Shown here: piece by piece, positions 30,172 to 62,064 of the stretch
Position numbering within the stretch: the stretch's first letter is position 1
How the letters are laid out: each line of letters starts with the position of its first letter
Origin: a plasmid
Sequence record: NZ_CP035506.1
DNA: 64,000 bases
Reading direction: 5' to 3' (one strand)
Made by a program: the position numbers and the translations under genes
The notes under the pieces: model-generated
What the model saw: only the letters and a program-made list of their open reading frames with translations
What the model was told of the DNA's origin: nothing
Database searches by the model: none

Positions 30172-31023
30172 TCAGTCCAGAAATTCGATGTTCGGAACAT
30201 GGGTGAGGCTGGTCCGATAGATCGCGCGAATCTTGTAATCGTTGCCGCTGTACAGTTTCACTTTGCGTCCAACGATCGCCGCACCGATGCCGATATGTAA
30301 CCGGTCGGTCACGATTGTTTCATACCGGGCGATCTCGCGCAGGAAGTCGTCGCCGTTGGACATGTGATTGCCAAGCGCGCTGATGTCAATGTTGCCCGCG
30401 GCCTTCTCGAACCGATGAGAGGATTCCCGATCGCGCCGGTAGGCGTAGCCTACAGGGGTTTCCGGGGGGCCGAAATCGTACTTCAGTCCCTTGGCCATCA
30501 GGTAGAGCGCCATATCATGACAGAAAAGCGACCGCGGGCAGGCTTCCTTGCTCTCATATTCATCTCGGCGAAACAGGGTTCCCCGCACTTTTGGTGCCTG
30601 ATGGTATAAAGTGGAGGGTAAAACGATAAGATTGTCTGTGAAATAGGAAATAAAGGCACAGATATCGCCAGCGTGACGATAGTTGTGCCCCCAGGCGGAC
30701 CCGCCCGAGTAGATGAAGAGATACCGGTTCCTGCGGGCGAGATAGGGCGCCAGGAAATAGCGGGCCGATCCCTTGCCGAGATGAATTTCGGTATGGGGAA
30801 TCCGGTAGTCATACAAGAACCGCTTCGCCCCGTGACGGATCAGCCCATCCCCGAAGTTGCCGGGATTGGGCAGGAAAATGACCTGCCGCCCCGCCGATTT
30901 CTCCTGGATGACACGGGCCAGCGTATCGAAGGCAGGCAGGAGATGGCTGCTGGAAACTTCTGCAGGCGCTTTGGCCAGGGGGGTGACGCGCTCCGAGGAG
31001 GTGGGAAAAGGCAAGAGATTCAT
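30172..31023 (-). CDS. Polysaccharide pyruvyl transferase (ExoV/GumL/WcaK family)
   Basis: PNPGNFGD motif. About 280 aa with family-like architecture. Lower GC than the surrounding genes. Confidence 0.65.
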   Translation of the reverse strand: MNLLPFPTSSERVTPLAKAPAEVSSSHLLPAFDTLARVIQEKSAGRQVIFLPNPGNFGDGLIRHGAKRFLYDYRIPHTEIHLGKGSARYFLAPYLARRNRYLFIYSGGSAWGHNYRHAGDICAFISYFTDNLIVLPSTLYHQAPKVRGTLFRRDEYESKEACPRSLFCHDMALYLMAKGLKYDFGPPETPVGYAYRRDRESSHRFEKAAGNIDISALGNHMSNGDDFLREIARYETIVTDRLHIGIGAAIVGRKVKLYSGNDYKIRAIYRTSLTHVPNIEFLD

Positions 31024-43000: not shown

Positions 43001-43340
43001 CGGCGGGAATGGTCTCCTCTCGGAAGACCCCGGGGCCGATGGCCTATCGGGAACCGGATCGTCCCATCTCGCGTGACCTGCGGCGTGTATTCCCACAATG
43101 GGTTGAAGGGAAACACCGATGTCTGGGAGGGCAACCGCGACTACTTTACGAGTAACATCGTCCCTGGCCCAATGCTGCGTGCATAAGGAATCTGAGCATG
43201 GCACTATTTCGGTATCGGCCTCGGGCGGCAGGGCTCGCGGGCAGCAGGCTCACTTCCTCGCCCCTCTGATCACGAGATCGGGCTACGGCTTGCGTGCGCT
43301 ACACGAGGAACCCGTTAGGTATACGACAGTGGGAGCAGTT

Positions 43341-44975
43341 ATGTCGGGCATGCTGGACCATGACCCATACCCTTCGATCCGGGACGGCGTGCCGAATTTC
43401 GCTATGGACGGCTGGGTCTATGGGCTGCGCGGGGACGAGATCGAGGCGCTGGAACGCGCCGTGACCTTCTCTGGCCCGGCTCACGCCACCTTGGAGGGGA
43501 TGGCGGTCGAGTTCCGCCTTGTCGGTACGGGAGGCGAGGCGGTCACCGGCTGGGTAAGCGCAGGCAGGATCACCGGTGGGGCATGGAGCGTCAGGCGGTC
43601 GATCCCGGCCACGAAGCATTGGTGCTGGCGGGAGGTCCGCCTGACAGCCAGCCCGGAGATCGTGGCGCGGAGCGTCGGGCGCTGCGCTGTCGGGTTCAAG
43701 CATCTGCTGGTTGGCCCGTCCTCGCTGGCGCGCGGAACCCAATGCCCCAATCCGAGCGTCTACGGCGCGGCGTTCACCATGCCTCCCCTGCCGGACATCG
43801 GAAAAGTTGCCTACTGCACCTTCTGGGAAGGGAAATCCACATTGGCCGGAGGGTCTGATGAAGCTCCTGCCCGGTACGGAATTACAGGGTCGGGGACGCC
43901 CCCCGTCAGCACGACCAATCCCGACAGCTTCCAGAACTGCGGCCAGATGCTCCTTGCCCAACAGCTTGCCAGCATGGTTCCGGGCATCCACGCCATCGTC
44001 AACGCCTCGGAGGCGGGGCGAGGCGTCTGGGGCGGGTCGAGGAACCTCCTCCGAATGCAAGCCGAGATTGACCAGCTTCAGACGATGATCGACCTGGCGG
44101 GAAACGACATCACGGTCCTGCTGTTCAACGAAGCCGTCAACGCGGGCAGTGCCACACAGACGCTGGCATCCGTCCTCCGAGGGGGGGCGCCCGGCCAACT
44201 CATGCACTTCGACCAGATCATTCAACCGGGCTATAGGCTGGTAAATGCGCCCGCGCGTGGCCAACAGGCGGTCAATTCAAAACCTGCCAAAGACCAATAT
44301 ATCCAGTCAGCCATCCAATTCGCCGCTGAAGGGGGCGTGACGGGTGTCCTCGCTCTTACGCGCATGGATTTGCGCGACACCGCAGGCTTGGTCGGAAACC
44401 TTACAGCGCATCCGAGGCAGGACGTTACGAATGGCGCTGTCTTGCAGGCCCCGATAACGGGCATGGCGCTGGCAAGCGCTCTCGGACGCGGCCCGGGCAT
44501 TCCTCATTTCGGACAAGCCAGATTTGGTAATGCGCGTCGAACGGAGATCATCGTGCCTGTCGTCGCGGCGAACCGCGGGAATATATCGGCCCTCAATCCG
44601 AAGAACATCTCGGGATTCATGTGGACAGACGTGGCCGCCGGGACGACGAGTTCGTATCTCTTGGCAAGCCTGTCGGATGGGGAAGTCACGATTGTTCACC
44701 CCGAGGGAAAGGCATTCCCGGTCAGCACCAAAGTGCGCATCACTCCGAGCCTCTATCACAGCGCCGGGGGCTACTTCCAGCAATGGCCGGGAAATGGGCA
44801 GCCGGGAGCGACTGCGATGAACGACGCCGGAGATCAAACCGTTTTCGAGGGGATCGTGTGGGAGGCATATCCGAAGGGGTTGTTCGAATACGGCCTCCCG
44901 GTGATAGGGCAGGTCAGCAAGGATGGGCTATATCTGCCGGTCTACGAGAAAGCGGTGCTGCCCTACGCCCCCTGA
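43341..44975 (+). CDS. Hypothetical protein (544 aa), no recognisable family
   Basis: Long uninterrupted ORF with a GGGAG RBS at the ATG at 43341. Convergent with, and 13 bp overlapping, the low-GC VPLPA-CTERM gene. Confidence 0.45.
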   Translation: MSGMLDHDPYPSIRDGVPNFAMDGWVYGLRGDEIEALERAVTFSGPAHATLEGMAVEFRLVGTGGEAVTGWVSAGRITGGAWSVRRSIPATKHWCWREVRLTASPEIVARSVGRCAVGFKHLLVGPSSLARGTQCPNPSVYGAAFTMPPLPDIGKVAYCTFWEGKSTLAGGSDEAPARYGITGSGTPPVSTTNPDSFQNCGQMLLAQQLASMVPGIHAIVNASEAGRGVWGGSRNLLRMQAEIDQLQTMIDLAGNDITVLLFNEAVNAGSATQTLASVLRGGAPGQLMHFDQIIQPGYRLVNAPARGQQAVNSKPAKDQYIQSAIQFAAEGGVTGVLALTRMDLRDTAGLVGNLTAHPRQDVTNGAVLQAPITGMALASALGRGPGIPHFGQARFGNARRTEIIVPVVAANRGNISALNPKNISGFMWTDVAAGTTSSYLLASLSDGEVTIVHPEGKAFPVSTKVRITPSLYHSAGGYFQQWPGNGQPGATAMNDAGDQTVFEGIVWEAYPKGLFEYGLPVIGQVSKDGLYLPVYEKAVLPYAP

Positions 44976-45664
44976 CGCGCCTTGCGCCTGCGCCCGACTG
45001 CCCAAAGCGCAGCCGTCCCGGCCAGCAGCAGCGGAGCGGCTGCGGGAAGGGGGACGGGGGCGGGAAGGCCTTCAACGGTAAATTTACCCAGATTATAATT
45101 AGCTCCATCCACGTAGTTAAAAGCTCCATAGCTTCCAGGTGGAATATATGGTCGTGGAATATGTGCGTGCCATTCATTGTTTTCGGGGTCATTTCCATCG
45201 ATTAAAGTTTCGAACTCTGTAAAATGAACCGAGACATGTGATTCAGTAAAGTTTCTAGAGTCGTATTCGGCGTATTCGCGAATATCCCAATATATAGGCA
45301 GCCAGTTTTCATCAAAACTCAATCTCCACTGCATGATGACCGCGAACTGGTTAGTGAAAACTCCTTTATCTCGCCCATAATATTCTCCTGAAGCTGTAAA
45401 AGGACCTTTCGGAGCTTCGTCGGTATCGAGGTAGAAGGTGTACCAAAGGTCCTCGTACGTCGGCGGTTTTCCCGGTTGGGGGTACGTGGTTTTCTCTATG
45501 AGACTATAGTTTTCCTTATGTCCTGTAGCCGGATTGTAGATGTATCCGACGAGACTGGTGTATCGTTCAATCATGTTCCCCGGATAGAACTTATACGTCA
45601 CAATCGCTGCCTCAGCCTGCCCTACTGTCAGGCAAGCCGCAGCCGCCAGAGCAAACGCTCTCAT
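44963..45664 (-). CDS. VPLPA-CTERM (PEP-CTERM variant) sorting-domain protein, secreted; low-GC gene
   Basis: Signal peptide MRAFALAAAACLTVGQAEA. C-terminus PVPLPAAAPLLLAGTAALWAVGRRRKA. GGAGGA RBS. GC is clearly lower than the neighbouring genes. Confidence 0.75.
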   Translation of the reverse strand: MRAFALAAAACLTVGQAEAAIVTYKFYPGNMIERYTSLVGYIYNPATGHKENYSLIEKTTYPQPGKPPTYEDLWYTFYLDTDEAPKGPFTASGEYYGRDKGVFTNQFAVIMQWRLSFDENWLPIYWDIREYAEYDSRNFTESHVSVHFTEFETLIDGNDPENNEWHAHIPRPYIPPGSYGAFNYVDGANYNLGKFTVEGLPAPVPLPAAAPLLLAGTAALWAVGRRRKARQGA

Positions 45665-46627
45665 CCCAAATCCTCCGATTAACCAATCGGCCTCACGGTG
45701 CCGTGAGGCCGACGATTCGAGCAAGGGTAAAGATTAAGATGTATCAGTCTGCAGGGATGACGGATGCCTCAAGGCGGATCAGCGCCTTCGTCGCGCCCAG
45801 CAGGGGTGAAGAGCGTGGGGTTTCTGATCGGAGACAGCGCCTTGTAAAGGCCTCCCGGCTCAGGCCTGCATCTCGGCGCCCGCGACATGCCACGGGCGCG
45901 ATCCCCGGTTGGGGCAGCAACACCAGCGGGGAACCCAAACCACCGATCACACGGGGCAGGATCCAGGGGCATTATCGGACCGGACCTCGGAGGAAGCCGA
46001 TCCCTGGAGATCGGCCTGAATATTATAACGAATATCGTTAAATATCGTACTGAACGAAGATCCTTCGGGCACCAACGCAGACCCTCGGTTCGTCCAAATT
46101 CAAGCCACAGGCTTGCGCAGCGCCTCCCAGAGCATCTTGAGTTCGACCTCCGAGAGCAGCCGGTGGAGGCTGCGCTTGATCGACTTCGCCGGCACGGTCA
46201 GCAAGTGACAAAACTCCTCCGTGGACACCACAGCCTGGGCGCTATCACCCAGCATGCAATGCAGACGCTTTCCTTAATGTTCGCCCGATGCCCGCTGTGC
46301 ATCCGCACCGCCATCAGCAGCTCGCAGCCGACATCGGGTGCGCGGTGGAGATGAATGCCACGAAGAACACAACTCGGTAAGGTTATGCTTGCTTGAATCT
46401 CTTCGCACCCGCAGAATCCTGAAGTCCTCGTGTGCAGGAGAGAAAAATGCAGCCGGCCGTGTCCCGCATCTCTTCCATCGACCTATTTCGCTATCTCACC
46501 GTTAGCTGCCGCGCGACAATCAGGGTGAGATTCCGCGTCAATCTGGGTGAGACGCCGTGGTGGTCCTGTGGTGGAGGGAGGGCGTAGCCCGACCGGAAGC
46601 ACAGGACCACCACGGCGCGCGCTTTGA

Positions 46628-49098
<2,471 letters not shown>

Positions 49099-49155
49099 AA
49101 TCTCATCCAGATTGACGCGCGCGTCTCTTCCAGATTGTCGCGCTATAGTTAGCTT

Positions 49156-50260
49156 CGCGCTTTTTTCTCACACACTTCTCTTCTTGAAGTCGGACGCCCT
49201 CTCGGGTGGCGATGTGATACTGGGGCTGAAATCGATCACCCGCACCGCAACGCCTGCCCTGATGATCCTGTTCGGGGTCATGGCAGAGATTGTCTACCTG
49301 AGACGCTACCGAAGCGATCCGGACAGGGCAGCGCAGGGCATGATTTCGCGCGCGATCATCTGCTACATCTGCTATGTTGCGCTGGTCGTTCTCGCCTTGG
49401 TCTTCGGCCATGTGAGAGGAGGACAGGCTATACGGGCGACGCTGCTGGTGGCGCCCTCACCTTATGCCAATATCTTCAAAATCTATACCTTTCTGCTGCC
49501 GATTACACTCCTGCTTGTCCAACTCCGGGCGCGCACGGGCCTCCTAGGGCCTTGGGTGGTTGTCGCAGGCATCTGGCTGCTAGACTGGATTGTGCTGGAC
49601 CACTTGCCCGCTCCTCCCGTTTTCGCCCACTTCGCGGGCTTCCTGTTCGGCATCGGAACCTCATGGGGACCGAGTATCCTGCACAGTCTAACACTCGTCG
49701 TGATGGGCATGACCCTGGGTGCCGCTTTCTTCAGCCCTTCCCGGCTGACAGAGAAGGCCGAGATGCATGCGGCCCGCCTCTGGCTCGGCATGGCCACTGG
49801 CCTGAGCCTGCTGCTGTTAGGCACGAAACTCGGCTGGTTCGGGTTGCATGGCGTTCTGCTGCGGATCGCGGACATCACGCAATGGCGGGGGGATAATGAC
49901 ATCGGCTATTACGCCTATGGCCTGCTCTCCGCCCTCGGGCTTCTGTTCCTCGCCCGATCAATCTGCATTATCGCTCCCCAGTGGGTCGTCACGCCGCTGG
50001 CCCGGATCGGCGGTGCGACGCTGGCCTATTTCTTCATTGGGAATGCGCTTCTCCTGATTCTGCCATCGCTCGACTGGCTACCCTTCTGGGGCAAGGCATC
50101 GTTCACGGTGGCTTTCCTTGTGTTCTGCGGAGGCGCCACCCTGATCTGGGACCAGCTAAGGAAGGCATTCCCGGTCCTACAGACGCCGGTTCGTGTCGCA
50201 CAGCAGATGACCGGCCTATTGCTCGGACACAGAAAAAGCCGCACCCTGTCCAATCCCTAG
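49156..50260 (+). pseudogene. Polytopic membrane protein (acyltransferase-3/OpgC-like?), 5' end apparently removed by the IS21 insertion
   Basis: Hydrophobic, about 10-TM ORF in frame from the IS end. The track ORF starts inside IS sequence (49016). Family assignment is tentative. Confidence 0.3.
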
Positions 50261-50289: not shown

Positions 50290-51342
50290 TCAGAGCGCGA
50301 TCCGGCCCAGCAGGCCAATATCGAACCGCCCTGCGTCGGTGAAATCATGCGCGGGGCGTTCCTCACCCTCGGCGCTGACGAAGCGCGCCTCGCAGTCCAT
50401 CCTGTAGCCTGTACGGGCGTGGACAGTCTGCCGGATATGGGCAATCAGGGCCAGAACCTCGTCCGATGTAGCGCCGCCCCGGTTGACGATGAAATTCGCA
50501 TGGAGCGGCGAGACCTGAGCCCCGCCCAAGGCAATGCCCTTCAGTCCCGCCTCCTCTATGGCCTTGCCGGGCGGGCCGACCACCGCATACATCGCGGGGT
50601 TCGACAGGAAGGTAGAGCCGCAATTGGGCAGGTTCTTCGGGAATTTCCGCCGGCGGGAGGCAAGGATGTCGATCATCTCGCGCCGGATCGCCGCCGGATC
50701 TCCCGGTTCCAGTTCCAACTCCACTTCGGTGATGGCACAGCCACGGCCCTGCAACGCCGAATGGCGATAGGAAAAAGCCATCTCTTCCTGCGTGAGACTG
50801 CGGATATCTCCCTCCGGCGTCACCACGGTGACGCGGCGGACATGAGCGCCGACGCCCTTGCGCTGGCTCCCGCCGTTCATCAGCACGAGCCCGCCGATCG
50901 TTCCAGGAATGCCTGCCACATGCTCAAGCCCCCTGAGCCCGCGCCGTGCCAGTTCCAAGGCCAAGCGTGGCACCCAGAGGCCACCGCCGCAGATGACTCG
51001 CGTCCCCTCGATGTGCAGCGCGGACATGGCCCGCCCGATCCTGAGCACGAGGCCGCGGTAGCCGTGGCTGTCCATCAACATGTTGGAGCCGTCGCCCAGA
51101 ATGAAGACCGGTACGCCATGCGCTCGCGCCAACCGCAGACAGGCCGCCACCTCCGTGCTGCTTTCCGCCTCCACCAGCAGATCAGCCGGCCCGCCGATCC
51201 GCCAGCGAACCTCTTGGGCCAGCGGCCGCCCTTCGGCGATACGGGTCACTCCCGCCTGACGCAGTGCCACGAGAAGGGCCGCGATAGGTGCGGAGACATT
51301 TGCCCGCAGCAAAGCTGCCTCAGGCGGCATGCCGATCCTCAC
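50290..51342 (-). CDS. murB: UDP-N-acetylenolpyruvoylglucosamine reductase
   Basis: FAD-binding MurB motifs (VFILGDGSNML, GLEHVAGIPGTIGG, C-terminal MurB domain). Start could be 51342 or 51330. Overlaps the murA stop. Confidence 0.8.
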   Translation of the reverse strand: MRIGMPPEAALLRANVSAPIAALLVALRQAGVTRIAEGRPLAQEVRWRIGGPADLLVEAESSTEVAACLRLARAHGVPVFILGDGSNMLMDSHGYRGLVLRIGRAMSALHIEGTRVICGGGLWVPRLALELARRGLRGLEHVAGIPGTIGGLVLMNGGSQRKGVGAHVRRVTVVTPEGDIRSLTQEEMAFSYRHSALQGRGCAITEVELELEPGDPAAIRREMIDILASRRRKFPKNLPNCGSTFLSNPAMYAVVGPPGKAIEEAGLKGIALGGAQVSPLHANFIVNRGGATSDEVLALIAHIRQTVHARTGYRMDCEARFVSAEGEERPAHDFTDAGRFDIGLLGRIAL

Positions 51343-52633
51343 GCACCTCTATACGGCCACCGATGGTGCGCAGCTTGCCCTCCAGGTCGTTGTACCCCCG
51401 AAGCGCCATGTGGACATTGTTGATGATCGACCGCCCGTCGGCACAGAGCGCAGCCATCACGACAGCCATGGAACCGCGCAGATCGGTGGAATCCGCCACC
51501 CCCGGCTTGAAGCGCGCCGACCCGTTGATGGTGATCTTGCCCCGTTCCGCCGTCAGGTGGTCGCCCTGAACGAGCTTTGCCAGTTCACCCACGAAAGCAA
51601 TGCGCTCCGGGTAGCGGTAGTCATAGACCCGAGAAGTGCCCGCCGCCGCCAGCGCAAGGATGACGTAGAAGGACTGCATGTCCGAAATCACACCCGGATG
51701 CGCCCCACAGGCCAACTCAAACGGCTGGACAGAACCGGAGGTCAGGCATCCCGGCGTCACATGCACCGAACGGGAGTTGCGGAAGAAGTCGATACCCGCC
51801 TGCTGCAGATGCAGAAGCGGCACTTCCATGCTCCCGAAAGGCACGTTATGCACGGTGAGTTCGCCGCCTGAGAGGATGCCGTAGACGATCCAGGTCAGCG
51901 CCTCGATCCGGTCGCTCATCACCGACATATGAGTGCCACCGAGCGGCTGGCCCCGCCCCTCCACCACGATGTGGCTGGAGCCGAAGACCTCTATGTTCGC
52001 GCCCATGCGGCGCAGGAAGGCGATCAGGTCCTCGACCTCCGGGGTGATGTAGGCGTTGTATATCTCGCTCCGCCCCTTGGCGATGGCAGTGCAGATCAGC
52101 GCCGTCTCCGTGCCGCCGACGGTGGAGATGCTGAAACGGATTTCTCCGCCCTGAAAGCCTTGGGGGGCTGTGATCTCGATATGGTCGTCCTTTTCCGTCA
52201 CCTCGGCGCCAAGCGCCTTCCATACCATGATGTGCTGGTCATAGCCGCGCCCGCCGGCCGAGCCGCCGCCGATAGGGCAGCCGCTGGGATAAGGGATGCG
52301 CGCGATGCCGGAGCGGAGTACCTGCGCCGCCGAGAGCAGATAGGTCGTGCGGATCGGCACATCGTAGTCGTTGCGGGTTAGCAACCGGGACTTGAGCGCC
52401 TGCGCGCTGATGGAGGCCTGCTCCGTCTCGCGGTCCAGCGTGATCTCGGCCCCGAGCTTGCGGCAGAAGTTTACCTTGTGACCGACATCGACCAGTTCTG
52501 TGGGAAAGTTGCGCAGCGTGACGGGCTCATCGCTGAGCAGAGCCGCCGAGAGAAGCCGCGTTGCAGAATTCTTCGCTCCACTCACCCGGACATGGCCGCG
52601 CGGGACGATCCCGCCGTCAATGATTGCGTACAT
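51320..52633 (-). CDS. murA: UDP-N-acetylglucosamine 1-carboxyvinyltransferase (MurA-like, divergent)
   Basis: 437 aa. N-terminal VSGAKNSATRLL, active-site Cys region SGCPIGGGS, EPSP-synthase fold repeat pattern. Confidence 0.75.
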   Translation of the reverse strand: MYAIIDGGIVPRGHVRVSGAKNSATRLLSAALLSDEPVTLRNFPTELVDVGHKVNFCRKLGAEITLDRETEQASISAQALKSRLLTRNDYDVPIRTTYLLSAAQVLRSGIARIPYPSGCPIGGGSAGGRGYDQHIMVWKALGAEVTEKDDHIEITAPQGFQGGEIRFSISTVGGTETALICTAIAKGRSEIYNAYITPEVEDLIAFLRRMGANIEVFGSSHIVVEGRGQPLGGTHMSVMSDRIEALTWIVYGILSGGELTVHNVPFGSMEVPLLHLQQAGIDFFRNSRSVHVTPGCLTSGSVQPFELACGAHPGVISDMQSFYVILALAAAGTSRVYDYRYPERIAFVGELAKLVQGDHLTAERGKITINGSARFKPGVADSTDLRGSMAVVMAALCADGRSIINNVHMALRGYNDLEGKLRTIGGRIEVREDRHAA

Positions 52634-52921
52634 CCGCTTTCACCTAATGATGCTTGAAAACATACTGTGAGGCTCCACAGGCCTTGTCTCGACCGTAAAC
52701 CAGTTTCTTCTTCCTGCCAATCGCTGCAGTGCAAAAGATACCGCTAACGATTCTATCGGCATATCTCTTTTTTCTAACAAAACATGATGGCAACCTCCAG
52801 ACCCGCCGATTCATCTCAAAGTTAATCTCTGCATTGCAGCTCGGCCACTTGAACCCCGGGATCCATTTGATACTGTTGAGAGGCAGTGGCCTTCCTGCAG
52901 GGTTCTTGCGAACCGGATTGG

Positions 52922-53983
52922 ATGAGAATGACTCCTTCCCACCCCCGATCTCCGAAAGTTTCAGTCGTCTGCGCCTGGTACAACAGGGCGGATTTCGTGC
53001 GCGATACGGTAGACAGCCTGCTGGCCCAGGATTTCGATGATTACGAGATCGTGCTGGTCAATGACGGCAGTCCCGATCCCCGTGTGCGAGAGATCCTCGA
53101 CAGCTACGATACTCCGCGCCTCCGGGTGATCCATCAGGCGAACGCAGGCTTCGTGAGCGCGATCCGCAAGGCCATCGACAGCTCAGGCGGCGAATACATC
53201 GCTGTCATGGGAGCCGGCGATGCTTCCCTGCCTGCGCGGCTGCGCAAGCAGGCTGAATTCCTCGACACCCACCCCGATCATATCGGCGTCGCCTGCGGTC
53301 TGCGGGAGGCGGAGGTAGATCGCGACTGGAAGATCGTCAAGGTCCGCGACCTTGGCCTCAAGGCGCGGCCCGAAATCACGCATGAGCAGGTTCTGGGGCG
53401 CATCCACTCCCCCTTCACCCATGGCGAGGTGATGTACCGGCGCTCCGCCTACGAGGCGGTGGGCGGATACCGGCCGTTCTTCCGTTTCACCCAGGATCTG
53501 GACCTGTGGTGCCGGATGTCGCGCTACGGGGGCAAATATGCCGTGATCCCGGATGTGCTTTACGAACGCCGGCTTTTCGCCGGCGACGGCATCGCCACCG
53601 ACATGCAGAAACATGTCGCCCAGATCACCCTGGCCTTCATGGCGCTGCAATGCGCCCGTGAATGGGACCGGCAGGGGTTCGATTCCATCGATGTCTTTGG
53701 CCTGCAGGCCGGCCTCTTCCGGGAGCCGAGCGCCCATCTGGCCAGCTATCTGGCCAGGATCGCGGTGAAATATCTCAAGGCCGGGCTGGTGGAGGAGGCA
53801 CGGTTCTTTGCCCGCCTCTCGCTTCAGGAGCGCCGGACGTCTGCGGGAAGGATCGCCCGCGGCATGATCGCCCTTCAGGGCGGGCGCTATTCCGGCCGGA
53901 TCGTCCAGACGGCCTTCCGGTTCCGCAAGATCCAGGATCCGCGCCAGATGCGCCCCATTCCCGCGCTGAGGCCGCAGCCCTAG
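52922..53983 (+). CDS. Glycosyltransferase family 2
   Basis: VSVVCAWYNRADFV...IVLVNDGSPD...GAGD motifs. Confidence 0.7.
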   Translation: MRMTPSHPRSPKVSVVCAWYNRADFVRDTVDSLLAQDFDDYEIVLVNDGSPDPRVREILDSYDTPRLRVIHQANAGFVSAIRKAIDSSGGEYIAVMGAGDASLPARLRKQAEFLDTHPDHIGVACGLREAEVDRDWKIVKVRDLGLKARPEITHEQVLGRIHSPFTHGEVMYRRSAYEAVGGYRPFFRFTQDLDLWCRMSRYGGKYAVIPDVLYERRLFAGDGIATDMQKHVAQITLAFMALQCAREWDRQGFDSIDVFGLQAGLFREPSAHLASYLARIAVKYLKAGLVEEARFFARLSLQERRTSAGRIARGMIALQGGRYSGRIVQTAFRFRKIQDPRQMRPIPALRPQP

Positions 53984-54029
53984 CTTCGGCGGCCGGGCCC
54001 TTCGCGGGATCCGGCCGCCGAGGGCCGGA

Positions 54030-54881
54030 TCACCCCCCCAGGCTCTCCCTGCGCCCGGCATCCTGGCCGGCGGGATGGAAATCCACGAACTTGCGCCCCA
54101 TGAGGTGCCAGTCCCGGCGCATCTCCTCGTAGAGAGCGGCATCGATGGGCTCGGGATTTGGCTTTCCGGAGATCCATTTCATCGCCGTGGGCGTCGGCCC
54201 GTCTGTCTCGAAGCCGAGATGGGCGAAGAGCGTCTGGAAGAACAGCTCGTCGCTGCAGAAGACCAGGCGGAAGGCGTTGAGATACCAAGGATTGGCGTCA
54301 AGGAAGGCCACCATCGCCTCGGCAACCGGCCGTTCGATTAGCCACCATTGCCAGCCGGCGTGGGGGCGTATGCCGCGCAGCAGTTTCGCCACATTCCTGC
54401 GCGGCAGGAGCCGGTCCACCGCCCGCGTGACCCAGATCCCCCGGGGCCCCAGGTCGAAGAAGAAGCGCTTCTCGAGCCGGGTCATCGTCCGGTCGGGGAA
54501 AGGCATCTCGCGGACATCCATGAAGTTGCCGCCCTGCCCGCCATTCGCACGCGCCGCCGCCGCGATTCTCGCACGGATCTCTGCGTCGGAGCGCAGGGGG
54601 TAATCCTGCCCGCTCATCAGATAGAGATGGGTCACCTCCGGGTTTGCCAGCGCCGCCTCGATCAACCGCAGCGTCGCCTCGACCTGGGAAAAACCGCCCC
54701 AGTAGACTGCGACCCGGTCGTGCAGGAAGTCGGCCTTTCCGAAAAGCGGTGAAAAAATTCCGATGTCGGACTTGGCATCTATATGGACATACCGTGCCCA
54801 GAGCTCCCCCGAAAGCCGGTCGAGCAGTCTCTCCATCAGGTCCGGGCGGTGATGCGCTTGAATGAGGGCCGCGATCTTCAT
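54030..54881 (-). CDS. Glycosyltransferase family 14-like (core-2/I-branching beta-1,6-N-acetylglucosaminyltransferase 'Branch' domain)
   Basis: N-terminal MKIAALIQAHHRPDLMERLLDRL and downstream YLMSGQDYPL, typical of bacterial GT14 members. Confidence 0.6.
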   Translation of the reverse strand: MKIAALIQAHHRPDLMERLLDRLSGELWARYVHIDAKSDIGIFSPLFGKADFLHDRVAVYWGGFSQVEATLRLIEAALANPEVTHLYLMSGQDYPLRSDAEIRARIAAAARANGGQGGNFMDVREMPFPDRTMTRLEKRFFFDLGPRGIWVTRAVDRLLPRRNVAKLLRGIRPHAGWQWWLIERPVAEAMVAFLDANPWYLNAFRLVFCSDELFFQTLFAHLGFETDGPTPTAMKWISGKPNPEPIDAALYEEMRRDWHLMGRKFVDFHPAGQDAGRRESLGG

Positions 54882-54899: not shown

Positions 54900-55910
54900 T
54901 CAGATACAATAATACTTTCTATACCACTCCACGAAACGGGCCACCCCCTCATTGATGTCGGTCTTCGGCAGGGGATGGCCCAGCAAGCGGGTGATGAGCG
55001 TCGCATCCGCCCAGGTGGCGGGCACGTCGCCAGGCTGCATGGGCAGGAAGTTCTTCTCCGCCTCCCGGCCCGTCGCCGCCTCGATGGCGGAGACGAAATC
55101 CATCAGCGGCACGGGCGCGCCATTGCCGATATTGACCACCCGCCAGGGCGCCACCGGGGAGAGGCTGTCGAATTCTCCCACCGGCTCCTGCCCGGGCGCC
55201 ACGTCGATCAGCCCCGCGATCCCCTCCACCAGATCGGCGACATAGGTGAAGTCACGCTTCATGTCGCCGTGGTTGTAGATGTCGATGGGCTTGCCTTGCA
55301 GCACGGCCTTGGTGAACTTGAACAGCGCCATGTCCGGCCGGCCCCAGGGGCCGTAGACGGTAAAGAAGCGGAACATGGTCGTCGGCAGACCGTAGAGATG
55401 GGCATAGGAATGCGCCATCGATTCCGTGGCCTTCTTCGTCGCGGCGTAGAAGGACATCTGGTGGTCGGCCCTGTCCGTCTCCGCATAGGGCATCCTGGTA
55501 TTGGCGCCATAGGCAGAGGAGGTGGAGGCCAGCAGCAGATGTGCGGGCGGCACCGCCCGCGCCGCCTCCAGCACCTCGAAGGTGCCGATGAGGTTCGCCT
55601 CCAAATAGGACCGCGGCGCGTCGATGGAATAGCGCACCCCCGCCTGGGCTGCGAGGTGGATCACCGCATCGGGGCGGAACTCCTCCATCAGGCCGCGCAC
55701 CAGCCCCTGATCCTCCACGCGGCCGATCACCGCGCGGAAGCCGGGATGTGCGCCCAGCATGGCGTGGCGCTTCTCCTTCAGCGAGACCTCGTAGTAGTCG
55801 CTCATCGCGTCGAGGCCGAGGACCTGCCAGCCATCGGAGAGCAGCCTTTCGGCCAGATGGTAGCCGATGAACCCGGCCGAGCCGGTGATGAAAGCCCTCT
55901 GCCCCGCCAT
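54900..55910 (-). CDS. NAD-dependent UDP-glucuronate 4-epimerase (UDP-GalA-forming)
   Basis: FITGSAGFIGYHLAERLL, YxxxK (YAATKKA), and collinearity with Cap1J/Gla-type epimerases. Immediately downstream of ugd. Confidence 0.75.
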   Translation of the reverse strand: MAGQRAFITGSAGFIGYHLAERLLSDGWQVLGLDAMSDYYEVSLKEKRHAMLGAHPGFRAVIGRVEDQGLVRGLMEEFRPDAVIHLAAQAGVRYSIDAPRSYLEANLIGTFEVLEAARAVPPAHLLLASTSSAYGANTRMPYAETDRADHQMSFYAATKKATESMAHSYAHLYGLPTTMFRFFTVYGPWGRPDMALFKFTKAVLQGKPIDIYNHGDMKRDFTYVADLVEGIAGLIDVAPGQEPVGEFDSLSPVAPWRVVNIGNGAPVPLMDFVSAIEAATGREAEKNFLPMQPGDVPATWADATLITRLLGHPLPKTDINEGVARFVEWYRKYYCI

Positions 55911-55923
55911 CTTCTCCGTCCCC

Positions 55924-57228
55924 TCAGCGCCCGACGCCGGCATAGGCGGCAAACCCCGCCTCCAGCACGCCGGTCTCGTCATAGACGTTGCGCAGGTCGG
56001 CCATCCTCGCCACGGCCATCGTCTCCGCCAGCCGGGGCAGGTCGAGGGCGCGGAACTCGTTCCATTCGGTCAGCAGGACCACGCAATCGGCGCCCTTCGC
56101 CGCCTCATAGGGATCCTCGCTCCAGGCGACGCCGGGCAGGAGCTTCTCCCCCTCGCGTTTCCCTTGCGGATCGACGACGGAGACCTGCGCCCCCGCGCCC
56201 ACCAGCGCCGGCACGATGGTGAGCGAGGGCGCGTCGCGCATGTCGTCGGTGTTGGGCTTGAAGGTCACGCCGAGGACGGCGACCTTCTTGCCGTTGACCG
56301 AGCCGTCGCAGAGGTCGACGACCTTGTCCACCATGCGCCGCTTGATCGCGTCGTTCACCGCAATGACCGTCTCCACGATCTGCATCGGCACGGCATGGTC
56401 CTGCCCGATGCGGGCCAGCGCCGAGGTATCCTTGGGGAAGCACGACCCGCCGTAGCCCGGCCCCGCATGCAGGAACTTGTTGCCGATCCGCCCGTCGAGG
56501 CCGATGCCCTTCGAGACCTGCTTCACATCCGCGCCGACCTTTTCGCACAGCCGCGCGATCTCGTTGATGAAGGTGATCTTGGTGGCGAGGAAGGCGTTGG
56601 CCGCGTATTTGATCATCTCCGCCGTTTCCAGATCCGTGTAGAGGATCGGGAAGTCGCGCAGGAAGAGCGGGCGATAGATCGCGCCCATCACTTCCTTCGC
56701 GCGCTCGGAGGTGACACCCACCACCACGCGGTCGGGGCGCATGAAATCGTCGATCGCAGCACCTTCGCGCAGGAATTCGGGGTTGGAGGCCACGTCGAAG
56801 TCTGCGGCCGGATTGGCGTCCCGGATCTCTGCGGCCACCTTGGCATTGGTCCCGACGGGCACGGTGGATTTCGTCACGATCACCGCATAGCCGGTCAGCG
56901 CCTCGGCCACCTCGCGCGCGGCGGCGAAGACATAGGTCAGGTCCGCATGCCCGTCCCCCCGCCGCGTCGGCGTGCCGACCGCGATGAAGACGGCATCCGC
57001 ACCCTCCACCGCCTCCTTCAGATCGCCGGTGAAGGACAGCCGTCCGGCCTGCACGTTCTTGGCCATGAGCTGATCGAGGCCAGGCTCGTAGATCGGCACC
57101 TCGCCCCGCTTCAGCATCTCGATCTTGCGGGGGTCCTTGTCCACGCAGACCACGTCATGTCCGAAGTCGGAAAAGCACACGCCGGAGACGAGGCCCACAT
57201 AGCCCGTGCCAATCATCGCTATCTTCAT
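55924..57228 (-). CDS. ugd: UDP-glucose 6-dehydrogenase
   Basis: MKIAMIGTGYVGLVSG Rossmann motif and catalytic Cys region GGSCFPKD. 435 aa from the internal ATG. Confidence 0.9.
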   Translation of the reverse strand: MKIAMIGTGYVGLVSGVCFSDFGHDVVCVDKDPRKIEMLKRGEVPIYEPGLDQLMAKNVQAGRLSFTGDLKEAVEGADAVFIAVGTPTRRGDGHADLTYVFAAAREVAEALTGYAVIVTKSTVPVGTNAKVAAEIRDANPAADFDVASNPEFLREGAAIDDFMRPDRVVVGVTSERAKEVMGAIYRPLFLRDFPILYTDLETAEMIKYAANAFLATKITFINEIARLCEKVGADVKQVSKGIGLDGRIGNKFLHAGPGYGGSCFPKDTSALARIGQDHAVPMQIVETVIAVNDAIKRRMVDKVVDLCDGSVNGKKVAVLGVTFKPNTDDMRDAPSLTIVPALVGAGAQVSVVDPQGKREGEKLLPGVAWSEDPYEAAKGADCVVLLTEWNEFRALDLPRLAETMAVARMADLRNVYDETGVLEAGFAAYAGVGR

Positions 57229-57337
57229 GGGGAGGTTGCCTTTTGATGCTTGTTCAAGGGGGTGTTCAGAAAAGGAGGGGTGTTCGGGAAGGTTAAAGCG
57301 ACAATCATCTGCCCGCACAACTGCGAAACGTTCCGCC

Positions 57338-58655
57338 TCATGCAGAACTCCCCTCTCGCTGCCGGCGGGCGGCGCGCGCGAGCTCGAAGAAGACATAGCC
57401 GCTGGAGAACAGGTAGAAAAACACCATTATCATGCTGTAGCTGGCCACATAGACCTCTGCCTCCGCCCCGGTGCGCCGGCAGGCCCAGTAAAGAACCAGC
57501 AACAGGGCCACGCGCAATCCGTTGATGATCAGATAGGCCGCCAGATTGCCCATGATGTTGAACACCTGCATGAGCGGCGTCGAAGTGACCTGGAACAGCA
57601 TGTAGAGCGCGAGCCATGAGGCGAAATATCCCGCCTGCGCCCAGTTCGCCCCGAAGACCAGGGAGAAAAGGGACGGTCCCCAGAAGGTCACGACGAGCGT
57701 GGGCAGGATACCCACCAGAAACAGCCGCTTCTGGATGATCTTGCTCAGATCGAAGATGCGGCCCGCCTGACGCCGGCCGAGCTTGGCGATCTCGCCGTAA
57801 TAGGCATTGCCGAGGGTCTGGGAGATGATCACGATCGGCAGCGCCATGACCTGCATGGCAAGGCCGAACTGCCCCGTCGTCGCGGGATCGTAGAGCGAAG
57901 CCGAAAAGATGAGGGGCGCCTGCATGGCGAAGGCCAACAGGAAATGCGAGGGCAGCCGGTAGATCGGAAAGCTGCGGAAGCGCCAGGCGAAGTAGCGCAT
58001 GCGCCGCCAGGAAACCATGCGGAAGCTCTTGCGAAAATCCGGCAGGAAGGCGCGCAGCATCCGCCCCGACCCTCCCCCGCTTGCAAGAACCCCGCCGAGC
58101 AGCAGGCCGATCGACCCGGCAGCGGCAAGGCCGAACCCGATCTTGGCGAGGCTGCTGGTGATGGACTGGCTGATCTGGGACTGCGAGATCACCCGGTAGT
58201 TCCGCCGCCTGACGCCCCAGGACAACAGCATCTCATAGGTTACCGAGGCGATCAGGCCCACGGGGACCAGCCACCACCAGGGCGCCAGATCCTCCATGGA
58301 CATGCGGGCGAAAAGCCGCTCTCCCCAGAAGAACAGCACAAGCGTCACGACCGCGATTATCGTGAGGGCGCAGGTCAGGGAAAGCACGAAAAGGTTCATT
58401 GCCGCGCCGTCGCTGCGCTGCTGGGCGATCGGCGTGCCATAGCGCAGCGTCAGCAGCGGCGCGATCATCCCGGTAAAGGCGAGCATGAGCGCCGCGATGC
58501 CGAAATCATGGGAACTGTAGAGCCGGGTCACGATCGGATAGCTGGCAAAGCCGATGACCCGGGCCGCCATCCCGCCGATCGCCAGAATGCTCATGCCCCG
58601 GAACACGGCGCCCGCGGGCCCGCCGAACAGGGCTGATTTCAGTTTCTGCCGCATG
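57338..58655 (-). CDS. Oligosaccharide/polysaccharide flippase-like MOP-superfamily membrane protein (second Wzx-like gene)
   Basis: About 12 TM helices. The N-terminal extension in the ORF track is low-complexity; the likely start is MRQKLKSALFGG. Confidence 0.55.
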
Positions 58656-58781
58656 GGTGCTCCGCGGGAAGGAAGGGGGGATTGCATGCCAACGGGCGTT
58701 CCACTCTGGTCGGGTTGCCGCCCTGCGGCGGGATCGGAGGTCATCGTTCCGCTGTCACTCGCCACTCCGCCATCATCCCTG

Positions 58782-59831
58782 TCACCCGATACCGAGATCC
58801 CGCGCCAGACGCAGGTATCCCTCCCCCAGCCGGTCGGGAGGCAGTTTCAGCAGCTGATCGAGCGCGCGGAGCGCGTCGCGCGTTCCCTTGAGTTCCGCCC
58901 GCGCCTCTGCCGAACGGATCCGCGGCAAAAGCCCCATCATCCGCAACCGGGCATAGGAATAGGTGCGCGCACGGATATCGGCGACCTGCGCCGGAGCCAG
59001 CCTGCCCGAGCCGAACTGCTTGGCGAAGATGAGGCCACGGTTCAGGATGCTCATCGCGGCGTGATGATACGGATCCGGCCGCCCGGCGGGGGCACGATGG
59101 TGATAGACCCGCGCCCGCCTTGCCGCCACGAGCGCACCGAACCGCATGGCCTGAAAGCTCGCGTCGATATCCTCGAACAGGCCGTAGCCCGCGAAAGCCT
59201 CCTCGAACCCGGAGGGGCGGATCGCCGCGGTGCGGAAGGACATGAGATAGCCGGTCATCCAGCCGACCTTCACCGCATCCTCCTCCTCCAGCCAGTCGGG
59301 AGCGGGCACGAGATCGGCAAGCGCATTGCCCATCGCGGGGAAAGGATTGCGGTCGGCGATGCCCCGTTCGAGCCGGTGCCGGAGCCGCTTCATCCGTGCC
59401 TCGCTCCGATGGGCATCGCTGATCTGGTAGCTGCGCCCCAGATCGATGCCGGGGGGCGGCTCGGGCGCATCGACGCAGCGCACGCCGGCGATCATCTCCT
59501 CCCCGTCCCGCTCATAGATGCGCAGGAGCGCCTCCGTCGTGCCCGGATGACAGAGGGAATCGTCGTCGGGGAAGAACACGACCGGGGCCGTCACTTCCGT
59601 CAGGCCGAGGTTGCGCTGCCGCGTCAGCCCCTTGGCCGACCGCATGAGGCGCAGCGGCACGTCGGACTGCGGGCGCAGCCGTTCGACCAGATCAGCAACG
59701 GGCGCCGCATCGTCCGAGCTGTCGACCACGATGATCCTTGAGGGCCGGCGGGACTGCCCGATCAGCAGGGGAAGGCAGAGTTCAAGCGCATCCGGGCGGT
59801 TTCGGGTAGCCACGACAACGTCGAAATCCAT
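58782..59831 (-). CDS. Glycosyltransferase family 2 (paralog of 28927..30021)
   Basis: VVATRNRPD...IIVVDSSDD...FFPDDDS. Shares long collinear segments with the 28927 gene (e.g. PDWLEE, GLFEDIDAS, YHH.AP). Confidence 0.7.
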   Translation of the reverse strand: MDFDVVVATRNRPDALELCLPLLIGQSRRPSRIIVVDSSDDAAPVADLVERLRPQSDVPLRLMRSAKGLTRQRNLGLTEVTAPVVFFPDDDSLCHPGTTEALLRIYERDGEEMIAGVRCVDAPEPPPGIDLGRSYQISDAHRSEARMKRLRHRLERGIADRNPFPAMGNALADLVPAPDWLEEEDAVKVGWMTGYLMSFRTAAIRPSGFEEAFAGYGLFEDIDASFQAMRFGALVAARRARVYHHRAPAGRPDPYHHAAMSILNRGLIFAKQFGSGRLAPAQVADIRARTYSYARLRMMGLLPRIRSAEARAELKGTRDALRALDQLLKLPPDRLGEGYLRLARDLGIG

Positions 59832-60080
59832 AAGTCTGGCAGCCCTTGCGCTAGTTCGTCCCCGCATCGGAAGGCCCCGATACATTCTTCAATATAAACG
59901 GAAGTTCGGGAAACACAAAGTGGGTTCTGCATTGCAGCATCGGAGGGCCGGCCTGCAGGCAGGGCTGTGCTTCGGGGCACTCCCCTCCGTGAGGAAAGCC
60001 CCTGCCCGCGCGGCCTCCCCCTCCCTCCCCGGCTCCCGCGGGTTGCCGGGGCCCGAAACGGCGCGATGAGGCGCAAGCGA

Positions 60081-60551
60081 TCAGGAAAAGATTTCCGCCC
60101 GGAGACGGGTGAGCAGGTTCTGACGGGAGAGGGACTCCTCCGCCTTCATGGGGGCGAGGTCCGGCTCCGACAGAAGGGCTTGCAGATCCTCGCGCGTCTC
60201 GGCGATGTGGATGCCGGGGATGCGGTTCATCTGGGAAACCGTCGCGAGCTGGTGATCGTTGCGGTGTTCGCCGAAGGCCACGCGCCGCGCCATCAGGACA
60301 AGGGGTTTCTCCGCCTTCAGCCCCGACAGGATCGTGCCGATCCCCGCATGGCCCACGATGACGCGGGCCGCGTCGAAATGCTGCTTGAACTCACGCGGGG
60401 CCAGGAAATCGACGCTTTCAAAGTTGGCAGGCTTCACGCGGGCATTGCCGATCTGTCCGAAGATGGCCTCCTGGAGGCTGGGCGCGACCTCGTCCATCGC
60501 CTTCACCAGACGATCGAACGGCAATTGGGTGCCAAGGGTCAGAAAGATCAT
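60081..60551 (-). CDS. Glycosyltransferase family 28 C-terminal-domain protein, Alg13/PssE/EpsF-like subunit
   Basis: MIFLTLGTQLPFDRL...VIVGHAGIGT motif. ATGA overlap with the upstream Alg14-like gene. Confidence 0.7.
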   Translation of the reverse strand: MIFLTLGTQLPFDRLVKAMDEVAPSLQEAIFGQIGNARVKPANFESVDFLAPREFKQHFDAARVIVGHAGIGTILSGLKAEKPLVLMARRVAFGEHRNDHQLATVSQMNRIPGIHIAETREDLQALLSEPDLAPMKAEESLSRQNLLTRLRAEIFS

Positions 60552-61024
60552 ATGACGCTTCCCCAGTAGGCCGGCTGGTTCTCCTTTTGCGCCAGATGTT
60601 CCCATTGTGTCAGGGTCACGTGACAGAATTTTCGGGCCAGCTTGCCGCTCAACGACAGCTTCTCGGAATTGGCGATGCTGTCGATCCAGATGGTCTTCGC
60701 CCCGAAGACCCGGCCCCAGAGCAGGCAAAGAAGCCCGGGAGCGGCGCCGGTGGACAGAATCACATCCGGTTTCAACCGGCTGACCAGAACGAAGGTCTCC
60801 CCCAGACCGCGCAGCATCTTCAGCGGTTCGTTCTGGTTGTAATCCCGGAGCGAAAGAAAGGCGGGCAGATCGTAATGCTCCGCCTGGCGGGCGTCGGTGC
60901 AGGCAAAGGTGACGCTCCCCCCCTCGAAGGCGGGGGCGATCTGCATGAGCTGCTCCCAGTGCCCTCCCGTTGATGCCACGGCCAGAATTTTGGGGCTGTG
61001 GGATGAGCCACTCTTCTTCATCAT
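60548..61024 (-). CDS. Alg14/PssD/EpsE-like glycosyltransferase membrane-anchor subunit
   Basis: KILAVASTGGHWEQL...VILSTGAAPG motif pattern of the Alg14 family. Confidence 0.7.
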   Translation of the reverse strand: MMKKSGSSHSPKILAVASTGGHWEQLMQIAPAFEGGSVTFACTDARQAEHYDLPAFLSLRDYNQNEPLKMLRGLGETFVLVSRLKPDVILSTGAAPGLLCLLWGRVFGAKTIWIDSIANSEKLSLSGKLARKFCHVTLTQWEHLAQKENQPAYWGSVI

Positions 61025-61557: not shown

Positions 61558-62064
61558 TCAGGCGGCTTTGGCGTCCGACCGGCGGGTGCGGGAGACGATA
61601 CCCGCCGCGCCAAGGCCGGCCAGCAGCAGAAAACCGGCGGCCGGAAGCGGCACCGAGGACGGGGGCACCGCCTCGGATATCAGGGTGAGCGTCACGCCCA
61701 CCGGGCTGGCCACGCCGTCAAAGAAGGTGACGTAGAAATCTTCCGACGTCGTGAAGCTGGGCAGCGTCCCGCCGGCGGTGGCAAGCTGCGCACGCCCGAA
61801 GAAGGTGCCGAAGGTGCTCCAGGTATAGGCTTGACCGCCGTTGATGGAGAAGGTCACGTCGAGCAGATCGGTGAAATCGCCCGATCCGGCCAGACTGAAG
61901 TCGAAGGTCATCGGGCTGTCCACGATGACGTTGAAGACCACCGTGCCGCCCGGAGAGAGCACGTCGGTGGCCGAAGTCAGCTCGCCTGCAACCGGTGTTA
62001 TGGTGACCGCCGGAGCCGCGACGGGGAGTGCTGCAAGAAACGCAGCCGCGAGAAGATGTTTCAT
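61558..62064 (-). CDS. VPLPA-CTERM (PEP-CTERM variant) sorting-domain protein, secreted
   Basis: Signal peptide MKHLLAAAFLAALPVAAPA. C-terminus SVPLPAAGFLLLAGLGAAGIVSRTRRSDAKAA. AT-rich upstream region. Confidence 0.8.
   Translation of the reverse strand: MKHLLAAAFLAALPVAAPAVTITPVAGELTSATDVLSPGGTVVFNVIVDSPMTFDFSLAGSGDFTDLLDVTFSINGGQAYTWSTFGTFFGRAQLATAGGTLPSFTTSEDFYVTFFDGVASPVGVTLTLISEAVPPSSVPLPAAGFLLLAGLGAAGIVSRTRRSDAKAA

Follow-up and report, generated by a model that had tools for sequence, protein, structure and literature searches.

A murA-like/murB-like gene pair in a plasmid-borne polysaccharide cluster of Haematobacter, a probable dedicated route to a lactyl-ether sugar

What is the role of genes resembling the cell-wall genes murA and murB when they are found on a plasmid, among genes for the synthesis of surface polysaccharides? 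This question is raised by positions 50,290 to 52,633 of a 64,000-nucleotide stretch of the plasmid record NZ_CP035506.1 (the whole stretch is hereafter called the window), which represents a RepA-type replicon from a Haematobacter strain and abounds in polysaccharide genes. The initial annotation of this DNA proposed that the pair supplies an enolpyruvyl- or lactyl-ether-modified uridine diphosphate (UDP)-sugar as a constituent of an exopolysaccharide (EPS) or, alternatively, that it is a redundant accessory copy. The analysis reported here favors the first of these proposals, since the MurA-like protein belongs to a distinct clade, a MurB-like gene adjoins its gene, a GT2 glycosyltransferase accompanies both, the neighbors are polysaccharide genes and the replicon carries RepA and mobile elements, whereas the redundant copy is disfavored. 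Thus, the pair is probably a dedicated route to a UDP-sugar bearing a lactyl (1-carboxyethyl) ether, intended for a surface polysaccharide and transferred by the partner GT2.

The overlap of the two genes by stop and start, noticed at the outset, was confirmed. The murA-like gene ends with a TGA codon (51322..51320), and two start candidates are available for the murB-like gene, GTG at 51342, which gives an overlap of 23 nucleotides, and ATG at 51330, which gives an overlap of 11 nucleotides. The latter is the more likely start, with a GAGGA motif located 5 nucleotides upstream, and with either start the arrangement indicates that the genes are translationally coupled. As read from the sequence, both open reading frames (ORFs) are intact, neither gene shows any sign of being a pseudogene, and the G+C content of the pair is the same as that of the remainder of the window.

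The MurA-like protein matches Pfam EPSP_synthase (164.7 bits) and passes the NCBIfam MurA subfamily model NF006873 (312.7 bits, cut-off 297), and it misses the cut-off of the murA equivalog TIGR01072 (300.3 bits, cut-off 392.7) and likewise that of NF009470 (236.8 bits, cut-off 552). Its divergence, already remarked upon in the initial annotation, amounts to only 30% identity to the MurA of Escherichia coli and 32% to that of Ruegeria pomeroyi, a canonical MurA from the same order, whereas a comparison between these two canonical enzymes gives 51%. In the alignment with E. coli MurA, whose numbering is used here and whose reference sequence is identical to PDB 1UAE across 419 residues, the catalytic residues K22, N23, R91, C115, R120, D305, R331, D369, R371 and R397 are all kept. 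Nevertheless, the protein carries a 5-residue insert after the catalytic Cys, and two segments are replaced: P121-V122 by G-Y, so that R-G-Y-D stands in place of R-P-V-D (canonical motif R-P-(V/I/M)-D), and V327-F328-E329-N330 by R-Y-P-E, so that R-Y-P-E-R-I stands in place of (V/I)FENRF. An AlphaFold2 (AF2) model was obtained with a pLDDT of 89 and a pTM of 0.87, its low-confidence part being residues 118-128, the lid loop with the catalytic Cys and the insert. The best PDB folds retrieved with this model by Foldseek were MurA structures (TM 0.86-0.87, 25-31% identity), and the model has the two-domain inside-out alpha/beta barrel fold of enolpyruvyl transferases. Taken together, these comparisons indicate that the MurA-like protein is not the ordinary MurA.

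The replaced positions presumably line the ligand pocket in MurA crystal structures, and positions 121-122 and 326-329 are also listed as ligand-pocket residues in docking studies on 1UAE (PMC10816260). A motif survey of the closest 150 representatives, in which 148 sequences were scored, revealed that Arg occupies position 327 in 35 of them, where canonical proteins have Val or Ile. Within this R327 class, the Pro121 position is mostly occupied by Lys or Gly and the Val122 position by Tyr, Phe or His; Pro121 itself is retained in 5 of the 35 sequences, as opposed to 89 of the 113 with the canonical position 327. Moreover, the nearest neighbor of an R327 sequence is also of the R327 type in 34 of 35 cases. 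The clade structure was derived from average-linkage clustering and nearest-neighbor counts on distances and motifs, a cruder procedure than a proper phylogeny. The separation of the clade, for which the initial annotation had suggested a phylogeny against canonical and EPS-associated homologues as a check, is based on this clustering and on the motif counts. The pocket changes may reflect a different acceptor sugar or, alternatively, an escape from the tight UDP-N-acetylmuramic acid (UDP-MurNAc) binding that regulates canonical MurA. A role as a fosfomycin-resistance MurA was also considered and dropped, since the target Cys is retained; because this cysteine is kept, the question arises of whether fosfomycin affects capsule formation.

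The second gene encodes a protein with the Pfam domains FAD_binding_4 and MurB_C (78.8 and 97.6 bits), which aligns with the type II MurB structures 4PYT, 3TX1 and 1HSK and keeps, in the alignment to 1HSK, the counterparts of the Arg/Ser/Glu triad of Staphylococcus aureus MurB (R188, S238 and E308). The murB of Alphaproteobacteria is normally found in the dcw cluster. Here, this housekeeping context is absent, as the initial annotation had stated: Pfam and ORF annotation of the window revealed no dcw genes in it, and the murB-like gene is surrounded by the murA-like gene, glycosyltransferases, ugd, Wzx and an IS21 element.

The close relatives of the MurA-like protein are scattered across phyla. 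Proteins 65-81% identical to it were found in the Alphaproteobacteria Celeribacter and Pelagibacterium and in the Gammaproteobacteria Stenotrophomonas and Luteimonas, and the same range was observed for the Actinobacteria Microbacterium, Arthrobacter, Nesterenkonia, Demequina and Corynebacterium callunae. Such identities across phyla, in contrast to the 30-32% to canonical MurA, fit horizontal spread rather than vertical descent. In a library clustered at 50% identity, the clade comprises three full-length representatives (507, 370 and 356 bits), with the next scores at or below 260 bits and 36-39% identity. A search with the C. callunae member found no close relative from other corynebacteria within its best 120 hits, and the hit nearest to it was 75% identical, which argues for a recent horizontal acquisition by this species. 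A PLSDB protein search found no plasmid carrying a member of at least 60% identity, a plasmid nucleotide search gave only weak matches and no close copy, and an exact-sequence contig look-up with the MurA-like protein of the window returned no match.

The gene neighborhoods of these relatives were compared in eight genome loci, four of them found with the MurA-like protein (Haematobacter, a Celeribacter metagenome-assembled genome, Luteimonas salinilitoris and, at 54% identity, a Verrucomicrobiia metagenome-assembled genome) and four being annotated contigs of named homologues. In all eight, a MurB-like gene lies directly downstream of the murA-like gene and, no farther than about 2.5 kb from the pair, a homologue of the window GT2 (30-46% identity) is found; additionally, all four annotated contigs are Wzx/Wzy clusters (Table 1). 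A further 80 metagenome loci (52-72% identity) came from a search with two clade-specific peptides, a procedure biased toward the clade and not toward any particular neighbor. Sequence extends at least 1.1 kb downstream beyond the match in 61 of them; 49 of these have the MurB-like gene adjacent and on the same strand, and 4 have it elsewhere in the locus. A GT2 homologue is present in 20 of the 29 with enough flanking sequence for that count. The 40 loci of at least 10 kb include MurB (38), Wzx (28), GT2 (25), WecG-type glycosyltransferases (11), Wzc (11), ugd (10) and phosphoglycosyl transferases (8), with at least one polysaccharide-type neighbor in 35. A category of murA-murB-GT2 polysaccharide cassettes was set up in this analysis, and is not a curated family; the window fits it in three respects: its MurA-like protein has Arg327, the murB-like gene follows immediately and on the same strand, and a homologous GT2 is only a few kb away. 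All relatives with a source name are labelled UDP-N-acetylglucosamine 1-carboxyvinyltransferase, and in plasmid records of Qingshengfaniella and Agrobacterium the partner is annotated as murB with peptidoglycan Gene Ontology terms.

More distant R327-type proteins, of about 35% identity, repeat the murA-like/murB arrangement on plasmids or chromids. In Agrobacterium sp. MA01, the MurA-like protein also has an insert after the catalytic Cys, and the plasmid cluster shares an Alg13/Alg14-like pair with that of the window. In Rhizobium, a murB-like match adjoins the murA-like gene of the replicons H22 and H29, which are related to the chromid of R. gallicum. A plasmid location alone is no marker of an accessory murA, since the canonical murA of R. 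pomeroyi DSS-3 (positions 8962..10227 of locus L010) is itself found on a 492-kb megaplasmid, beside DUF2948 and glmS.

Table 1. Features of the window around the murA-like/murB-like pair and related loci in other organisms (positions in the window, or in the locus named).
Feature or locus	Position	Strand	Remarks
Pyruvyl transferase	30172..31023		Pfam PS_pyruv_trans, 29.2 bits (cut-off 25.3)
Multi-pass membrane-protein gene	46446..46514 (5' end); 49148..50260 (3' part)	+	Convergent on the murB-like gene; the two parts separated by IS21
IS21-family insertion sequence	46515..49147	+	istA 46628..48208, istB 48205..49098; Pfam IstB_IS21 (212.7 bits) and Mu-transpos_C_2
murB-like FAD-dependent enolpyruvyl reductase	50290..51342	-	350 amino acids; probable start ATG 51330; coupled to the murA-like gene
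murA-like enolpyruvyl (1-carboxyvinyl) transferase, accessory R327 clade	51320..52633	-	437 amino acids; Pfam and NCBIfam matches
Divergent intergenic region, murA-like gene to GT2	52634..52885		252 bp; presumed to carry both promoters
GT2 glycosyltransferase	52886..53983	+	Pfam Glycos_transf_2, 90.9 bits; conserved companion of the pair, putatively acting on the modified sugar
GT14-like (Core-2/I-branching) glycosyltransferase	54030..54881	-	Pfam Branch, 56.5 bits; 3' part mosaic relative to H. massiliensis
NAD-dependent short-chain dehydrogenase/reductase (SDR) sugar epimerase/dehydratase	54900..55982	-	Pfam Epimerase, 178 bits; probable start near 55910
UDP-glucose 6-dehydrogenase (ugd)	55924..57396	-	Three UDPG_MGDP_dh domains; TIGR03026, 468 bits; probable start 57228
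Wzx-type flippase of the cluster	57338..58765	-	Pfam Polysacc_synt, 34.6 bits
Second GT2 glycosyltransferase	58782..59885	-	Pfam Glycos_transf_2, 53.2 bits
Two-part glycosyltransferase, Alg13-like (60081..60728) and Alg14-like (60548..61024)	60081..61024	-	Pfam Glyco_tran_28_C and Alg14
Plasmid replication initiator RepA	62454..63542	-	Pfam PF10134 RPA, 331.6 bits
Pelagibacterium nitratireducens locus			Bac_transf, sulfation genes, ugd, epimerase, WecG-type glycosyltransferase, pair, Wzx, GT2, Wzy
Microbacterium sp. Root61 locus			Wzc, Bac_transf, pair, GT2, GT4, two pyruvyl transferases, Wzx, Wzy, WecG-type glycosyltransferase
Stenotrophomonas chelatiphaga locus			Wzc, ugd, WecG-type glycosyltransferase, pair, Wzx, two GT2, Wzy, acyltransferase
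Corynebacterium callunae locus (L008)			Sugar aminotransferase genes, Bac_transf, glycosyltransferases, ugd, Wzx, pair, GT2, Wzy
Qingshengfaniella alkalisoli plasmid (L009)	8965..12202		murA-like, murB, GT2 operon; alone, outside any large EPS cluster
Agrobacterium sp. MA01 plasmid (L012)	8870..11230		EPS cluster: Wzy-like genes, tyrosine autokinase, ugd, epimerase, Alg14/Alg13-like pair, murB, murA-like
Rhizobium gallicum chromid (L011)	about 10001..11197		murA-like gene

From the way in which MurA and MurB are known to work, and given that the active sites are intact, the chemistry of the pair can be outlined as follows. The two genes would form a small operon dedicated to one nucleotide-sugar branch of a Wzx/Wzy-type polysaccharide pathway that the plasmid encodes. 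The MurA-like enzyme would take the enolpyruvyl group from phosphoenolpyruvate and attach it to a hydroxyl of a UDP-sugar, and the MurB-like flavoenzyme would use NADPH to reduce the resulting vinyl ether to a lactyl ether. The neighboring GT2, whose role is deduced from conserved linkage only, would then add the acidic sugar to a lipid-linked repeat unit, which would be flipped by Wzx. We infer these reactions, the part of the GT2 and the acceptor sugar alike.

Regarding the acceptor, the product could be UDP-MurNAc made outside housekeeping control or, about equally plausibly in view of the altered pocket residues, either another UDP-sugar or the output of an enzyme freed from UDP-MurNAc feedback. 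A common precursor, namely UDP-N-acetylglucosamine (UDP-GlcNAc), UDP-glucose (UDP-Glc) or UDP-galactose (UDP-Gal), is suggested by the fact that no sugar-modifying gene is constant across the loci, while the changed pocket residues argue against an unaltered UDP-GlcNAc site. An attempt to deduce the acceptor from co-occurring genes was abandoned, given that ugd, the epimerase and the WecG-type glycosyltransferase each occur in only about one quarter of the large loci. In a broader and more tentative proposal, which we hold as possible but somewhat doubtful, the R327-type murA-like gene, murB and the GT2 would constitute a mobile three-gene cassette for lactyl-ether sugars of capsules, EPS and O-antigens in various bacterial phyla. 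The acceptor would then differ from UDP-GlcNAc and might be a UDP-hexose or a UDP-uronic acid, with a new group read by the conserved Arg327, and thousands of database entries labelled as housekeeping MurA and MurB would be misassigned.

Several observations weigh against a dedicated lactyl-sugar route. Firstly, the cluster that harbors the pair has no phosphoglycosyl transferase or polymerase of its own: the EpsG-like polymerase and the WecA-like transferase, as well as Wza, Wzb, Wzc and a second Wzx, belong to another cluster of the window, 30-40 kb away. Secondly, no single sugar-modifying gene travels with the pair, ugd being found in 10 and the WecG-type gene in 11 of the 40 large loci. 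Thirdly, the MurB-like protein passes the cut-offs of the murB equivalogs NF010480 (279 against 259 bits) and TIGR00179 (191.2 against 144.5 bits), and the MurA-like protein passes that of a MurA subfamily, so that sequence models do not cleanly separate the pair from cell-wall enzymes. Finally, 8 of the 61 metagenome loci lack a MurB-like gene in the sequence available.

These eight loci (L076, L078, L023, L065, L068, L087, L088 and L090) carry a clade member of 52-67% identity, and in L076 the available sequence, which holds no MurB-like gene, has a GT2 homologue directly following the murA-like gene. Loci of this kind may produce unreduced enolpyruvyl ethers, or the reductase may be encoded elsewhere.

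Among the alternatives, the least improbable is that the two proteins are redundant peptidoglycan isozymes, comparable to MurAA and MurAB of Firmicutes, which in certain situations provide the cell wall with additional UDP-MurNAc, their location in a polysaccharide cluster being coincidental. The retention of all catalytic residues and the passing of the murB equivalog cut-offs speak in its favor, and a perhaps related case is known in Corynebacterium glutamicum, where a dispensable, strain-variable extra murA/murB pair was read by its authors as isoenzymes and where its deletion lowered the measured peptidoglycan (PMC6844371), although a connection of that pair to this clade is not established. 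In fact, a search seeded with the C. callunae protein returned no C. glutamicum protein among its best 120 hits, leaving the published pair not tied to the clade. The C. glutamicum genes are presumably the adjacent cg0422 and cg0423; in view of the missing link they were not used as evidence for this clade. We consider such isozymes unlikely, since they leave unexplained the conserved GT2 and Wzx/Wzy linkage in four phyla as well as the low identity to canonical MurA together with the systematic pocket changes, and since the 65-81% identity across phyla indicates transfer as a cassette.

It is also improbable that the precursor made by the pair is destined for a product outside polysaccharide repeat units, such as a modified nucleotide or secondary metabolite, a glycolipid or the glycan of a glycoprotein. 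A precedent is offered by NikO of nikkomycin synthesis, which uses the same fold on uridine monophosphate (UMP) and is clearly matched by the MurA-like protein (TM 0.84, E = 5e-33); moreover, the altered residues 121-122 lie on the nucleotide side, and the trio of Qingshengfaniella stands outside any large EPS cluster. However, the neighbors are overwhelmingly Wzx, Wzc, glycosyltransferases and ugd, no natural-product genes were seen in the neighborhoods examined, and the MurA-like protein is closer to MurA than to NikO. Lastly, it is highly improbable that these are the only, housekeeping murA and murB of the organism, carried by an essential secondary replicon (chromid): although a canonical murA can be plasmid-borne in this order, as in R. 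pomeroyi, the MurA-like protein is only 32% identical to that enzyme, lacks its RP(M/V)DLH and (I/V)FENRF motifs and does not reach the murA equivalog cut-off, dcw genes are absent from the window, the context is mobile, the same cassette occurs in capsule/EPS loci of Actinobacteria and Xanthomonadales, and no plasmid in PLSDB has a member at the identity threshold given above.

The surroundings of the pair agree with what had been described, the flanking GT2, GT14, ugd and epimerase genes and the more distant pyruvyl transferase all being present (Table 1). A sigma-70 consensus scan of the divergent intergenic region found no promoter site. The SDR epimerase may be a uronate 4-epimerase, to judge from its position beside ugd. 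The presence of RepA together with Tn3 and IS21 elements on the same replicon points to plasmid or accessory DNA, in agreement with the putative plasmid origin first suggested. Elsewhere in the window, an exosortase, Tn3 elements, Wza/Wzb/Wzc, a WecA-like initiating transferase, an EpsG-like polymerase, gmd/fcl-type genes, further glycosyltransferases and a second Wzx were found.

Comparison with a contig of Haematobacter massiliensis CCUG 47968 (L001), which is about 98% identical to the window and otherwise collinear, clarified the origin of the truncated membrane-protein gene beside the pair. As the initial annotation had recognized, the gene is split by IS21; in H. massiliensis, it is intact (393 amino acids) and free of IS21 (contig site 13474..13486). 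The insertion is precise, with a GTTAGC repeat at both ends. The disrupted protein has no Pfam match even at E = 1, and its N-terminus, SSIDLFRYLTVSFALFSH, resembles O-acyltransferase starts, so an O-acyltransferase may be guessed. A second difference is a mosaic segment (53948..54458, corresponding to 8228..8686 of the contig) that extends over the 3' part of the GT14-like gene into the end of the GT2 gene: its flanks are about 98-99% identical to H. massiliensis, whereas the GT14 protein there is only 58-76% identical and aligned in three pieces, which suggests recombination or decay in one strain. Another non-homologous stretch between the strains lies at 45062..45601 (contig 14392..14892), and the contig encodes at 14329..14991 a 220-amino-acid protein with a PEP-CTERM-like tail. 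The plasmid therefore carries a strain-variable surface polysaccharide trait, with IS21 and the mosaic glycosyltransferase segment setting the window apart from CCUG 47968.

A few further features of the replicon were recorded. An exosortase (EpsH and DUF3485) at 980..2584 shares the replicon with the polysaccharide clusters and with a PEP-CTERM protein encoded on the minus strand at 61558..62064, whose Pfam match is marginal (20.6 bits, cut-off 20.7), and another mobile element, consisting of a Tn3-family transposase of 961 amino acids and a serine resolvase, occupies 3214..6852. The Wzc tyrosine-kinase co-polymerase is found in two ORFs, 12233..13063 (Wzc N-terminal domain) and 13078..14223 (GNVR and P-loop), which could result from a frameshift or represent a genuine system of two parts. 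ORFs of 318, 399 and 369 amino acids (25591..28824), located between the first Wzx and a GT2, have gene-like codon bias and no Pfam match, and a 618-amino-acid ORF at 43119..44975, with gene-like codon bias and conserved in H. massiliensis, has no Pfam match even at E = 1.

The type of product predicted here is already known from surface polysaccharides. Lactyl ethers of rhamnose, glucose and GlcNAc have been described in E. coli O58, O124, O146, O69 and O150 (PMC7685785), and wfeP is required for UDP-GlcLA in E. coli O124 (PMC7685785 and PMC4515632, cited jointly for lactyl-ether glycans). MurNAc is found in the lipooligosaccharide of Psychrobacter arcticus (PMC4515632) and, as cited there, in the capsule of Vibrio vulnificus. 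These papers name no MurA/MurB-type genes for such sugars, and a review of pyruvate substitutions treats MurA in the context of peptidoglycan only (PMC6801904). In the open-access full-text literature, a scope outside which most subscription journals lie, no paper was found that attributes the synthesis of lactyl sugars to MurA/MurB-type genes of Wzx/Wzy clusters. Lactyl-ether sugars occur in many O-antigens, capsules and marine EPS, with no gene assignment found in the same literature. If the proposed function is correct, a conserved and portable murA-murB-GT2 cassette would offer a testable genetic basis for this chemistry and, as a marker in genomes, could help to predict acidic, lactylated polysaccharides. 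A systematic error, the annotation of such proteins as housekeeping MurA and MurB, would also be corrected, an error which can mislead counts of essential genes and drug targets.

Some known systems resemble the pair in part. The ketal pyruvyl transferases (PS_pyruv_trans: CsaB, PssM, WcfO) also place a three-carbon carboxylate derived from phosphoenolpyruvate on a polysaccharide sugar, but their fold is unrelated, their substrates are lipid-linked or polymeric, and they form a cyclic ketal and need no reductase (PMC6801904). NikO (enolpyruvyl-UMP transferase; 4FQD) shows that the MurA fold can be recruited outside the cell wall; however, it acts on UMP and has no MurB partner, and the window protein matches MurA at E = 1.6e-53 as opposed to 5e-33 for NikO. 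The MurAA/MurAB (MurA1/MurA2) enzymes of Firmicutes are alike in representing a second enolpyruvyl transferase gene in one genome. Nevertheless, both of these serve peptidoglycan, have the canonical pocket, lack a second murB partner and lie outside polysaccharide loci.

The closest comparison remains that with MurA (EC 2.5.1.7; E. coli 1UAE) and type II MurB (EC 1.3.1.98; S. aureus 1HSK), with which the window pair has in common the folds, the domain sets, the catalytic residues and the fosfomycin-target Cys, as well as the two-step logic, in which an enolpyruvyl group is transferred and then reduced by a flavoenzyme to a lactyl ether. The window protein differs from MurA in the 5-residue insert of its Cys lid loop, the replaced pocket positions 121-122 and 327-330 and the score below the equivalog level. 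In addition, unlike cell-wall murA and murB, the window genes lie in one operon within a plasmid Wzx-type cluster and are linked to a GT2 instead of murC-F and mraY. Enzyme families and chemistry that are already known thus appear here in the form of a distinct cassette, conserved and mobile, whose role is probably new and whose substrate may be new as well.

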